DNA of 64,000 nt from Dehalococcoidia bacterium. Its GTDB lineage: Bacteria > Chloroflexota > Dehalococcoidia > Lucifugimonadales > UBA3495. The stretch's first letter is position 1; each line of letters opens with the position of its first letter. Shown piece by piece: positions 60,119 through 63,735 of this stretch. Made by a program: the position numbers and the translations under genes. The notes under the pieces are model-generated. The model saw only the letters and a list, made by a program, of their open reading frames with translations. It had not been told where the DNA came from and did not search any database. The stretch lies in NCBI GenBank assembly GCA_965207865.1, contig CBDBNP010000005.1:112055-176054 (forward strand). Direction: 5' to 3'.

Positions 60119-61666
60119 CTAGTTTACTCGGCCGACACGATCGAAAGGAGCCTGGGAAATCGACCGATACACTTCGCACACCTCGTCTCCGAATTCAAAC
60201 CGCCCTGCGAGTGCATCAACCACCACTTGCACCGTCAGAGCAGAGCACCCCAGCACCGACGCCGGTGGAGCGTTGTTGACCGGAGCCGAGCAACCCAATG
60301 ACGGCGCCACAAAATCGCCACCCGCATCCCCACTGGGGATAGCCGGATATTGAGGTCCCTCTTTTCTCAGGTGGATCGGAGTGTCCCCTGGCAACACCTG
60401 TCGTTGCACCCTTGCCACGCTGCCGCCACGGTAGAGAGCGCCCGACACCAGCGGCTTGCTTACTTCCGAGGCTACCATAGCCAGCGCAGGAACAAAGGCA
60501 TCATTGCCTGTGGCGTCGACGACTATATCAGCGTTCAAAATGAGCTCTTGAATTCTGCCTGGAGTCATCGGGGCCTCAGGATGCTCCTTCACTTCAGTCC
60601 AGGGTGCGTGCCTGCTGATCATGCGATGAACCGCTTGAACTTTGAGCGCCCCCACCTGGTCATGGCCTGCGACGTGTCTGACCACGTTTTCGGGCAGGAG
60701 CACATCACCGTCCACTATGTCCAGATAACCGAGCCCACTTTCTGCAAGCGTGTTCCCCACGTGCCCTCCAAGAGCGCCAGCACCGAACAGCGTAGCCCTG
60801 AGGGTCCGCAACAGTGGCGCATCCGGACCTGCGCGCAAAATCAGGCTGTTTTCATCGTTGGGCCCTGGCTGCAACGCGATCGCCTCCATCTCGTGATTCA
60901 TTCCCGCACACGCCATCACCAACAGGTCGGGCCTACCGTGGCGTTCCCAGCAAAACAGCACGAGGTCGACTCCACCGCTCGGCACGAAAGGAACCGGCCC
61001 CTTGCGATCGGACAGCGCTTTATTGAGTCCCTTTCTCTGGCTCCTGGAGAGGTAACGGTACACTTCCGCAAAACTGCGGGGCGGCGGGCCATCCAATGCG
61101 CCTGCATGAAACCATAGGCCTTGCAAATGGTGCCCGCCGTTTTGGCGGCCTTGCCGTATATCAAGCCGGGGCGGATTGAGACTCACGGCGCCATGAATTT
61201 CTCCCCAGCTGCCGCTGCGAACTTTGAGCTCACGCAGATCGACTGTCGCTACATAGGGGAATGGAAAAAGCGACTTCCCGGGAAAATTCAGGAAGGCATC
61301 CCCCTGGAGATCGTCCGCCTCCCAACCGCGTTTTGCGTTCTCGCACCATTCGCCAATCCGCGAGAAGAAACCTCCTACAGTGACCCAATCGCAGCTGGGA
61401 TCCCCATCCTGCCAGAGGCAAACGAACCCACCCGGCGTTGCGTGGTTGGAGTCGAGGCCATCGACAATGAGAGCGGGCGATTGGAACGGCCATCCAGGCC
61501 GCACCACGACGTCCATTGTGATCGCGCCGGTCAATTCAGAAAAGGATTGATGGATCGGTCCTCTCCAGACCGAAAGTCCGTCGACGGTTATGGGTTCAAA
61601 GCCGGATACCGCCAACTCACGCTCGAAGACCTCCAGGGATTCCATATGGAAATGGTCGCCGTTCAT
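60119..61666 (-). CDS. cap2: CBASS Cap2-like E2-E1 (ThiF) fusion enzyme
   Basis: N-terminal E2-like GWPFQSP...NHATPGGFVCLW (catalytic Cys); C-terminal ThiF/E1 FGAGALG, DGDVL..ENVVRH, VVDATG, GCS; directly downstream of the CD-NTase. Confidence 0.85.
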   Translation of the reverse strand: MNGDHFHMESLEVFERELAVSGFEPITVDGLSVWRGPIHQSFSELTGAITMDVVVRPGWPFQSPALIVDGLDSNHATPGGFVCLWQDGDPSCDWVTVGGFFSRIGEWCENAKRGWEADDLQGDAFLNFPGKSLFPFPYVATVDLRELKVRSGSWGEIHGAVSLNPPRLDIRQGRQNGGHHLQGLWFHAGALDGPPPRSFAEVYRYLSRSQRKGLNKALSDRKGPVPFVPSGGVDLVLFCWERHGRPDLLVMACAGMNHEMEAIALQPGPNDENSLILRAGPDAPLLRTLRATLFGAGALGGHVGNTLAESGLGYLDIVDGDVLLPENVVRHVAGHDQVGALKVQAVHRMISRHAPWTEVKEHPEAPMTPGRIQELILNADIVVDATGNDAFVPALAMVASEVSKPLVSGALYRGGSVARVQRQVLPGDTPIHLRKEGPQYPAIPSGDAGGDFVAPSLGCSAPVNNAPPASVLGCSALTVQVVVDALAGRFEFGDEVCEVYRSISQAPFDRVGRVN

Positions 61667-61671
61667 CCTTG

Positions 61672-62682
61672 CTATCCGAAGCGGCTGGACTCGTTCGGTC
61701 GACGGACCAAAGGTGGACTCGCCGCAGCCGCTGCACCGCCCGATGCGCCACCGATGGAGCCCTGACCAGAGGAACCACTGCCTCCGGACGTCGAAGACTT
61801 CCTGAATTTGTCCCCGAAGAGTTCCTGCCAGAGTTTGATAGCCTTGTCAGCATCCGGCTCGGCTTTCGCCTGCTTTGCTGTCCGAGCATACGACTGAACC
61901 CGGTCTCTGAAATTTGAATACCTTCGCTGGTCCCAGTGCCGGTTGAAATCCTCAGTGGACAGCACAGGATTCCTTATCAGTGGCATATTGGGATGCTGAT
62001 GCAGGTATTCGTTAATCCGTGATAGCACGGTCTCCAACGTGTCGGCCACAGTGCTCACCGCCACAGTTCCTCGGTCCGACGCCCTGATGGTGTTGCCCGC
62101 CAGGGTGGTCAGCAGAATCGACTTGGCGCTGAAGCTGTTCTTGTGGTCCCGCAGGTGCTTGAGCAACCTCACGACCCGCTTCAGGTTCCCGCCCGTGATC
62201 CTGTTCTTATCATTGAACCAGTTTCGGTATCCGTCGCCGTCCGTCTCATCGAACTTGTTTTTGTTCCGGTCACATACGTAATGCTTGCCGTCTATGGTCA
62301 CCCGGGGAACGACGTCGAGGTGAAAGTCGCCGGCATAATCGACGGTCACGCACCGAGTCTTCAGCTTGAGCTTTTCGGCATAGACCTTGTTGCTTCTAAG
62401 GGCTCTGTCAATTTCGTGGACATAGTCCTTGGGTTCCCACTTGGGGTTCGGGTTCATCACTATCTGGATGTCGGCATCGTATTCGTCGTTGTCATCCACC
62501 GGCTTGATGAGCGTCCCAAGTGCGTATGAACCCTGCCTCTCCATCGTCTGGTAGCCGTGCAAATTGTCCTTAAGGCAGCCGTTCACCCCTCCCACGGCAG
62601 TCTCCAATCGCTCCATTCGGCGTGGATTTAGGTTCACCTCATCCCTGAGGAAATCATCGAATTCCTGGTTGTTCTTGGCCAA
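61672..62682 (-). CDS. cGAS/DncV-like nucleotidyltransferase (CD-NTase, SMODS-type)
   Basis: QGSYALGTLIKP...EYDADI (hGS plus DxD), KTRCVTV.Y, HLDVVP third Asp, LKRVVRLLKHLRD, NPVL..EDF; TTG start after GGAGG. Confidence 0.9.
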   Translation of the reverse strand: MAKNNQEFDDFLRDEVNLNPRRMERLETAVGGVNGCLKDNLHGYQTMERQGSYALGTLIKPVDDNDEYDADIQIVMNPNPKWEPKDYVHEIDRALRSNKVYAEKLKLKTRCVTVDYAGDFHLDVVPRVTIDGKHYVCDRNKNKFDETDGDGYRNWFNDKNRITGGNLKRVVRLLKHLRDHKNSFSAKSILLTTLAGNTIRASDRGTVAVSTVADTLETVLSRINEYLHQHPNMPLIRNPVLSTEDFNRHWDQRRYSNFRDRVQSYARTAKQAKAEPDADKAIKLWQELFGDKFRKSSTSGGSGSSGQGSIGGASGGAAAAASPPLVRRPNESSRFG

Positions 62683-62700
62683 ATCAATCCCTCCTTGCAG

Positions 62701-63735
62701 CTATGCCAGCGCCTCGAACGGCGTGGCCGTGGCAGCGAAAAACACCTCCTTTAACCCCTCGGAGTGCTGCTCAGCGACCGCAAGCGCCTCCTGAGGCAAC
62801 AACCGCGTGGCCTTAGCCCAATCGTCCAGGTCGATAGGCTCCGTGCCCTGCGGACGGTCCAATCTCGTTACCTTGTCGCGACCGATCAGAAGCCCGGCCT
62901 GGTTCACTGCGGTGAGGGACTGGTAGTGCATGGCAACGTAGATGATCTCCCGCCACTGGAACTGACCGGCCCCGGACGTCTGCTTGCTGTTGATGCGGAA
63001 CCCGTCCTGTCCGCACCCGATACTCAGGATCGCGATTTTCTCCCGCCGCACTGTGAAGCAGTTCAGAGCTTCCACCAAGGCCATCATGGTGGGATTGTTG
63101 GCCCATATCCCGCCGTCCAGCAGGATGTAACCATCCTGGACCACCGGTTTAAGGTAGGTCGGTGCCGCCGATGTCGCTGCGGCCACCTCGGACATGGGCT
63201 TATCGCCGTCCAGGAAATACCCCGGGTGGTGGGGAGTTTTGTAGACCGCGGGGTCCCCGTGCTTGGCTTCGGTCGACGGAATGAGCAACCGGTACTTGGA
63301 CTCCCGTAGCGTTCTTGCACCCAGGGTCTGCAAGAGCAACTCATCAAGGGCGGCCCGATCATATCGATTCTTGGACAACCTCCGAAACAGCCGGTTGCTC
63401 TTCTGACGTTGCTTCGGCGGGAAAACCTTGTGCCCTTCGTTCACGTACAGATCCAGCAACGACCGAGCAGTTAGTCCGGCACCCAGACCCAGGGCGATGA
63501 TCCCTCCGGTCGAGGTGCCGGCTACCAAGTCGAAGTAATCCCCGATGGGCTGACCGCTGAGGCAATTCTCTTCCAGATAGACAAGAATGGCCGCCGGAAA
63601 AATACCCTTTATGCCGCCACCATCCAGCGACAAAATCCTGAACGTCCTGTCGTCAGGCCACGGCAGTGGTTCCCTGCGGGTCTGCAGGATCGTGTCTGAC
63701 CTGCGCGTTTGTATGCTATGACCAGAATTCATCAA
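62701..63735 (-). CDS. capV: patatin-like phospholipase, CBASS CapV-type effector
   Basis: LSLDGGGIKG oxyanion loop, GTSTG nucleophile, ATSAAPTY, LDGGIWANNP catalytic Asp; first gene of the CD-NTase operon. Confidence 0.88.
   Translation of the reverse strand: MMNSGHSIQTRRSDTILQTRREPLPWPDDRTFRILSLDGGGIKGIFPAAILVYLEENCLSGQPIGDYFDLVAGTSTGGIIALGLGAGLTARSLLDLYVNEGHKVFPPKQRQKSNRLFRRLSKNRYDRAALDELLLQTLGARTLRESKYRLLIPSTEAKHGDPAVYKTPHHPGYFLDGDKPMSEVAAATSAAPTYLKPVVQDGYILLDGGIWANNPTMMALVEALNCFTVRREKIAILSIGCGQDGFRINSKQTSGAGQFQWREIIYVAMHYQSLTAVNQAGLLIGRDKVTRLDRPQGTEPIDLDDWAKATRLLPQEALAVAEQHSEGLKEVFFAATATPFEALA

Follow-up and report, generated by a model that had tools for sequence, protein, structure and literature searches.

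The best-studied class of cyclic-oligonucleotide-based antiphage signalling systems (CBASS), type II, is represented by capV-dncV-cap2-cap3 of Vibrio cholerae and E. coli TW11681 and by the CdnD-Cap4-Cap2-Cap3 systems of B. cereus and E. cloacae, which use cA3 or cAAG. The published signature of a Cap2 substrate is a conserved C-terminal Gly or Ala, which is adenylated and conjugated by Cap2 (PMC10097602; bioRxiv 10.1101/2022.03.31.486616). The tail of E. cloacae CdnD ends in ...TGRFA (bioRxiv 10.1101/2022.03.31.486616). BcCdnD is a cA3 synthase that was placed in clade D by its authors (PMC13424991), and the type II cyclase of B. cereus has been reported to be conjugated to PspA and reversibly controlled (PMC11153139). 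Here, we analyzed a three-gene operon coding for a patatin lipase, a nucleotidyltransferase of the cGAS/DncV-like type (CD-NTase, the cyclase) and Cap2. It lies in a 64,000-nucleotide stretch of a Dehalococcoidia genome (assembly GCA_965207865.1, contig CBDBNP010000005.1, positions 112,055 to 176,054), which is called the window below. Our analysis indicates that the operon is very probably an intact type II-like CBASS of minimal form, with three genes, which is maintained by selection, belongs to a natively Cap3-less clade and would work as the characterized type II systems do.

The three genes are co-oriented and separated by gaps of 18 bp (patatin/cyclase) and 5 bp (cyclase/cap2). The open reading frames (ORFs) were confirmed where the initial annotation had placed them (Table 1). 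The same annotation mentioned clear ribosome-binding sites. This holds for the cyclase gene, with AAGGAGG ~7 nt ahead of its TTG codon, and the signals of the other two genes are weaker: the AAGG of cap2 directly abuts the ATG, and no good Shine-Dalgarno sequence was found before the patatin gene. The ratio of nonsynonymous to synonymous substitution rates (dN/dS), calculated for the window against five relatives, was 0.10-0.19 across all three genes and 0.10-0.15 for the patatin gene. The three genes are under purifying selection. At the nucleotide level, the window is similar to its nearest relatives only within 59984-63863, a cassette of 3.9 kb, with an identity of 88.5% to locus L016 and 86% to loci L017 and L018.

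Table 1. Features of the operon and its surroundings (window coordinates).
Feature	Position	Strand	Details
Patatin gene (capV-like phospholipase effector)	62701-63735	minus	344 aa; TTG start; in-frame ATG at 63732, one codon in
CD-NTase gene (CBASS cyclase)	61672-62682	minus	336 aa; TTG start
cap2, E2-linker-E1 (ThiF) fusion	60119-61666	minus	515 aa; ATG start
Gly/Ser/Ala-rich C-terminal cyclase tail (putative Cap2 substrate tail)	61675..61797	minus	ends ...RRPNESSRFG; predicted disordered
Conserved 5' leader/promoter region of cassette	63736..63863	minus	~128 bp upstream of patatin start; nucleotide homology to nearest relatives
Conserved 3' end of cassette	59984..60118	minus	~135 bp past cap2 stop; homology to L016 stops at 59984
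IS701-like (DDE_5) transposase, broken	58643..59933	plus	Pfam DDE_5 in two frames (58643-59320, 58996-59292); further ORF 59478-59933
Large serine recombinase at island edge	56180..57787	minus	Resolvase + Recombinase + Zn_ribbon_recom; 3' end overlaps comM fragment
comM internal fragment	55915..56247	plus	Pfam Mg_chelatase 3.6e-37, model positions ~52-159
IS21	53595-55852		istA 54371-55852; istB 53595-54605
comM N-terminal piece	~53374-53577
DNA polymerase I gene	43191-45992

The families were assigned with Pfam, PADLOC, NCBIfam and PDB, together with predicted structures. Since these four libraries, the predicted structures and the conserved synteny agree, the operon can be recognized as a CBASS whose effector is a patatin and whose other two genes code for a CD-NTase and Cap2, as had been proposed from the initial reading. 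The family matches greatly exceed what chance would give. Each of the catalytic motifs named there was verified directly in the three proteins. The gene 18 bp upstream of the cyclase codes for a recognized class of CBASS effector. The lipase matched Pfam Patatin (2e-29), the PADLOC effector model PDLC00757 (1.4e-105) and NCBIfam NF041079, 'CBASS cGAMP-activated phospholipase', with 246.5 bits at a cut-off of 200. It contains the motifs GGGIKG (residues 39-44), GTSTG (73-77, with Ser75) and DGG (207-209). Its closest solved relatives are CapV/patatin proteins (3e-36), and CapE, which is activated by cUMP-AMP, is a far more distant match (3e-16). Judging by these matches, the lipase is nearest to the cGAMP-activated CapV.

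The cyclase was matched by Pfam SMODS (5e-30), DncV-like_NTFase (3e-12) and the PADLOC cyclase model PDLC00793 (8e-110), and it is the sole SMODS gene in the 4.68-Mb genome. The CD-NTase active-site pattern GS...[DE]xD...D is present as G51-S52, D69-A-D71 and D123, all invariant in 31 homologues. An AlphaFold model built with the 31 homologues reached a predicted local distance difference test score (pLDDT) of 85.5, with the core above 90. The top Foldseek matches of this model were all bacterial CD-NTases, namely EcCdnD, with a template-modelling (TM) score of 0.75, BfCdnB, CdnC, SmCdnG and DncV, and the TM scores against solved CD-NTases reached 0.75-0.78. The NCBIfam cGAS model gave 102.7 bits, which is under its cut-off of 150, and covered the C-terminal half only. 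To find the clade of the cyclase, phmmer, a family profile run against PDB and Foldseek were used, with solved structures as the only references. The family profile scored 77 bits against BcCdnD, 68 against SmCdnG, 64 against VcCdnG, 52 against BfCdnB, 41 against EcCdnD, 39 against DwCdnB, 32 against CdnC and 23 against DncV. Clade A, which comprises the DncV-like cGAMP synthases that are the usual partners of CapV, was set aside on the DncV score, and clade C on the low score of CdnC. By these comparisons, the cyclase is not DncV-like and is without a close characterized relative. Its clade is ambiguous among D, G and B, and the lipase is nearest to a cGAMP-activated protein. The earlier remark that the second messenger is unknown was judged fair, as the cyclase could not be placed in a clade.

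The C-terminal tail of the cyclase (residues 296-336) had a pLDDT below 50 in the AlphaFold model and is predicted to be disordered. Among the 31 homologues the linker part of the tail is free in length and sequence, and the last residues, R-x-NEAxRFG, with the terminal Gly (G336), are invariant. A disordered C-terminal extension of the cyclase with a conserved terminal Gly or Ala is a feature of type II systems, and the tail found here agrees with the published signature of Cap2 substrates (PMC10097602; bioRxiv 10.1101/2022.03.31.486616). As the gene itself encodes this Gly at the very end of the protein, the tail requires no maturation. The ...NEAxRFG tail was also found on different, unrelated cyclase cores paired with the same Cap2 clade. 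As different cores still end in this way, the tail motif seems portable and appears to track Cap2 rather than the cyclase core.

Cap2 matched the PADLOC E1-E2 model PDLC00847 (1.2e-159) over residues 4-514 and Pfam ThiF (1.3e-20). The protein contains Cys83 (in GFVC), the adenylation loop GAGALG (295-300) and Cys459 (in GCSAP, within LGCSAPVNN); both cysteines and GAGALGG are invariant in 21 homologues. In a search of its family profile against PDB, the E1 domain of E. cloacae Cap2 was the best match (2e-15), and the top Foldseek match of its model, which is mediocre, was Cap2 7to3_A (1.6e-13, 488 aligned columns). A fusion of E2 with a full ThiF/E1 domain, carrying the cysteines and the adenylation loop, is the type II arrangement, as opposed to the E2-only ancillary protein without E1 of type II (short). 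Homologues of this Cap2 fall into more than 500 clusters and are 511-525 aa long.

A scan of GTDB species genomes yielded 78 related loci. Almost all of them are from metagenome-assembled genomes of Dehalococcoidia, including SAR202, with a small number from Acidimicrobiales, Latescibacteria, Caldilineaceae and Thermoflexaceae. Patatin, cyclase and Cap2 genes in the same order and with the same spacing were present in 47 of the 78 loci, in varied genomic contexts. Their patatins form two subtypes, which are ~75-90% and ~33-37% identical to the patatin of the window. Other loci of the same Cap2 clade combine TIR-SAVED or Cap17-like effectors with a different cyclase core. Examples are L060:2494-6551, L077:2261-6527 and L027:3087-6539, in which a Cap3-less Cap2 occurs with TIR-SAVED or Cap17-like effectors and the tail ...NEAxRFG. 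This distribution suggests module shuffling around a conserved pair of Cap2 and tail. In several Dehalococcoidia genomes the cassette is present twice, and the effectors of the two copies sometimes differ: L016 and L018 (on a single chromosome, OZ242013.1), L023 and L048 (OY762251.1), L024 and L027 (MPNC01); the genome of the window has one. In one relative, L019, the cyclase gene is partly duplicated: an incomplete copy (675-1526), with 80% identity along 850 bp, is located ~2.5 kb upstream of the intact cassette.

A helix-turn-helix (HTH) gene and a second, M78-like gene, which resemble the CapH/CapP pair, stand directly upstream of 28 of the 47 patatin cassettes. No such regulator genes were found in the window cassette or in its four closest relatives, and these five keep only a conserved leader of ~130-190 bp upstream. 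The HTH (XRE) and M78-like pair exists in two sequence variants (L011:2816-3867, L012:2853-3886, L015:2859-3895, L014:2755-3864).

The operon had been described initially as lacking Cap3, and our searches bear this out. No PF14464 (Prok-JAB) match was found in the window, and neither a JAB motif nor an ORF for one was seen between the cap2 stop and the end of the conserved cassette (59984..60118). Likewise, the 77 other related loci have no JAB gene adjoining cap2. When 25 genomes of the clade were searched in full, no co-oriented PF14464 match was found within 5 kb of cap2, and the control locus, L090, was recovered. A tblastn search with the Cap3 of L090 found nothing adjoining cap2 in any other locus. 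The ORFs directly 3' of cap2 in the relatives code for AbiEi, GmrSD or unassigned proteins, not JAB. In the seven genomic contexts that were read, the effector-cyclase-Cap2 order was seen in all, without JAB and with quite different neighbourhoods. A hidden Cap3, either as a fusion with Cap2 or in a different reading frame, was also considered and rejected, given that this Cap2 is shorter than canonical ones, that the window has no PF14464 match and that tblastn was blank. The outgroup L090 (Acidimicrobiaceae; Cap2 36% identical) has a classical overlapping Prok-JAB Cap3 after cap2. Its full set of TIR-SAVED/cyclase/Cap2/Cap3 (JAB) genes spans L090:2698-6963, the cyclase tail ends in ...NEARGFA, and it was the nearest Cap3-bearing relative found.

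Canonical systems hold cap3 exactly past cap2, as L090 does, and in the window a broken DDE_5 transposase lies ~185 bp past the cap2 stop. The operon could then be a canonical four-gene type II CBASS that recently lost cap3 through an IS701-like insertion, and so a damaged and possibly mis-regulated copy. We regard this as highly improbable and set it aside: the nearest relatives, which have no insertion sequence (IS) there, are also without cap3, the conserved cassette unit ends ~135 bp 3' of cap2, ahead of the IS, and purifying selection acts on all three genes, cap2 included. The absence of a JAB gene beside cap2 in the 77 other loci and the 25 genomes also speaks against a recent loss. The missing Cap3 is therefore a property of the clade and not the result of damage. 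The IS701-like transposase itself, split over three or more ORFs that differ in frame, lies immediately outside the conserved cassette. In the papers searched, no description of an E1-E2 system that naturally lacks Cap3 was found, which does not prove that none has been published. The Cap2 family is already catalogued by an existing PADLOC model, even if undiscussed. Therefore, the suggestion that the operon may be a new variant stands only modestly, on the Cap3-less architecture; that architecture is conserved across a large clade, and its Cap2 is matched by the PADLOC model.

The biochemical steps and the defence phenotype are drawn by us entirely from the characterized type II systems. By this analogy, the E1 domain of Cap2 would adenylate the encoded Gly336 of the cyclase without processing. 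Cap2 would pass the cyclase via Cys459 (E1) and then Cys83 (E2) onto a cellular target, and the cyclase would thus be primed. Upon infection, the cyclase would make a cyclic oligonucleotide, which would activate the patatin lipase with its Ser75/Asp207 dyad; membrane phospholipid would be degraded and the infection aborted. With Cap3 absent, the conjugation would be unopposed or irreversible.

Several observations weigh against this interpretation. The cyclase is about equally distant from the solved D, G and B enzymes, and the fold similarity does not discriminate between them. The predicted model of Cap2 is of low confidence (pLDDT 62), and the correspondence of Cys83 and Cys459 to C109 and C548 of E. 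cloacae is inferred from position and invariance. The promoter was not recognized: a sigma-70 consensus is absent, and a promoter/terminator scan was not above the shuffled expectation. The operon sequence was absent from the RNA runs searched. Moreover, the system might still be served by a deconjugase that has a different fold or acts in trans.

In an alternative reading, Cap2 is mainly a brake, not a primer. The cyclase would be parked on an abundant host protein until infection, as proposed for PspA in B. cereus, and a non-JAB, phage or distant JAB protease would release it. Among solved cyclases, the type II enzyme of B. cereus, with its reported PspA conjugation and reversible control (PMC11153139), is nearest to ours in sequence, and five JAB-domain matches exist elsewhere in the genome. 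The title of a 2026 preprint reports that CBASS is activated by phage proteases. However, the five JAB-domain matches are on other contigs and none adjoins CBASS genes, and the cassette has no linked protease gene in the contexts examined. In V. cholerae, E. coli and E. cloacae, Cap2 activity promotes defence (PMC10097602; bioRxiv 10.1101/2022.03.31.486616). We consider a brake unlikely, and priming of the cyclase by Cap2 is the reading that we prefer.

The DNA polymerase I of the window is 87% identical to PolA encoded on the 4.3-4.7-Mb Dehalococcoidia-labelled chromosomes that bear the nearest cassettes. This result supports a large-genome Dehalococcoidia host, in agreement with the initial annotation, which had also located the operon on a comM island. 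Indeed, comM is interrupted, and an element with a serine recombinase follows its internal fragment. The gene is cut twice (53374-56247): IS21 splits its 5' part, and the fragment is bounded by IS21 on the left and by the island on the right. The C-terminal piece, with Mg_chelatase_C, is on another contig (C6:95122-95616), and thus the far boundary of the island is not in this contig. Past the end of the window, on the same strand and upstream of the operon, a region (L008:6475-10831 = G000:C5:176475-180831) encodes a 744-aa UvrD/GajB-like helicase without a GajA partner. The same region encodes a DpdF/PsyrT-like helicase that is split into ORFs of 309 and 386 aa. Both helicases may belong to another defence system or be what is left of one. 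Genes for a DDE transposase, ParA and a RecD2-like helicase were found there too, upstream of the operon, and the gene content of this region is consistent with a defence island.

The mobile setting, with its recombinase, ParA and IS elements, might also suit a non-defence cyclic-nucleotide signalling module, or an addiction module that stabilizes the comM-integrated element, as abortive-infection toxins can also stabilize mobile elements. The cassette was found, however, in many non-island contexts beside CRISPR-Cas, restriction-modification, AbiE and helicase defence genes, and the scores of its components exceed the curated CBASS thresholds or come close to them. This is the least probable of the explanations considered, and defence against phages remains the favoured function of the operon.

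The general picture of CBASS is unchanged by this finding. The operon is largely an ordinary CBASS and a recognizable member of a class that the initial annotation had rightly called known. It extends the range of CBASS to large-genome Dehalococcoidia, which are hard to study. A large, maintained clade with predicted Cap2-dependent priming and no linked deconjugase offers a natural test of the role of Cap3, and this instance also does without a CapH/CapP regulator. If the conjugation indeed cannot be undone, or if a protease that is non-JAB or phage-derived undoes it, the control of priming would differ from the described Cap2/Cap3 equilibrium. The compact cassette and its short conserved tail motif could be useful for work on substrate recognition by Cap2. 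It is possible, as a tentative extension, that the clade represents a Dehalococcoidia-wide CBASS without Cap3, in which Cap2 recognizes R-x-NEAxRFG as a portable tag on at least two cyclase cores, in systems whose effectors are patatin, TIR-SAVED or Cap17-like. As its partner is a cyclase outside clade A, the CapV-like lipase might also respond to an uncharacterized nucleotide.

Compared with capV-dncV-cap2-cap3 of V. cholerae and E. coli TW11681, the operon has the same order of effector, cyclase and cap2, and it shares the CapV-closest lipase, the E2-E1 fusion of Cap2 and the disordered, Gly-ending cyclase tail. It differs in the absence of cap3, in a cyclase that is not of the DncV-like clade A (DncV 23 bits versus BcCdnD 77) and in a shorter Cap2 (515 aa versus ~590-600 aa). 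The B. cereus and E. cloacae systems include the nearest solved cyclases (BcCdnD, 6.7e-17; EcCdnD, TM score 0.75). They have in common with the operon the xGSY motif and the RF[G/A] tail, as EcCdnD ends in ...GRFA, and supply the best PDB match for the E1 domain of Cap2. Their effector is a SAVED nuclease, whereas here it is a patatin lipase; the identity is ~18-25%, and Cap3 is absent here. The type II (short) system of Serratia marcescens, CdnG-E2, is likewise without a JAB deconjugase, and SmCdnG is the second-best profile match of our cyclase. That system has E2 only, whereas the operon encodes a full ThiF/E1 with a Gly-rich ATP loop and a candidate E1 cysteine. In CBASS regulated by CapH/CapP, an HTH protein and an M78 peptidase are present; a similar pair accompanies 28 of the 47 sister cassettes, and the window and its four nearest relatives do not have it. 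Thus, the operon is distinguished by the lack of Cap3 throughout its clade next to a Cap2 with both E1 and E2, by a tail motif that seems portable, and by a CapV-like lipase combined with a non-clade-A cyclase, which makes it a modest variant of the known systems.

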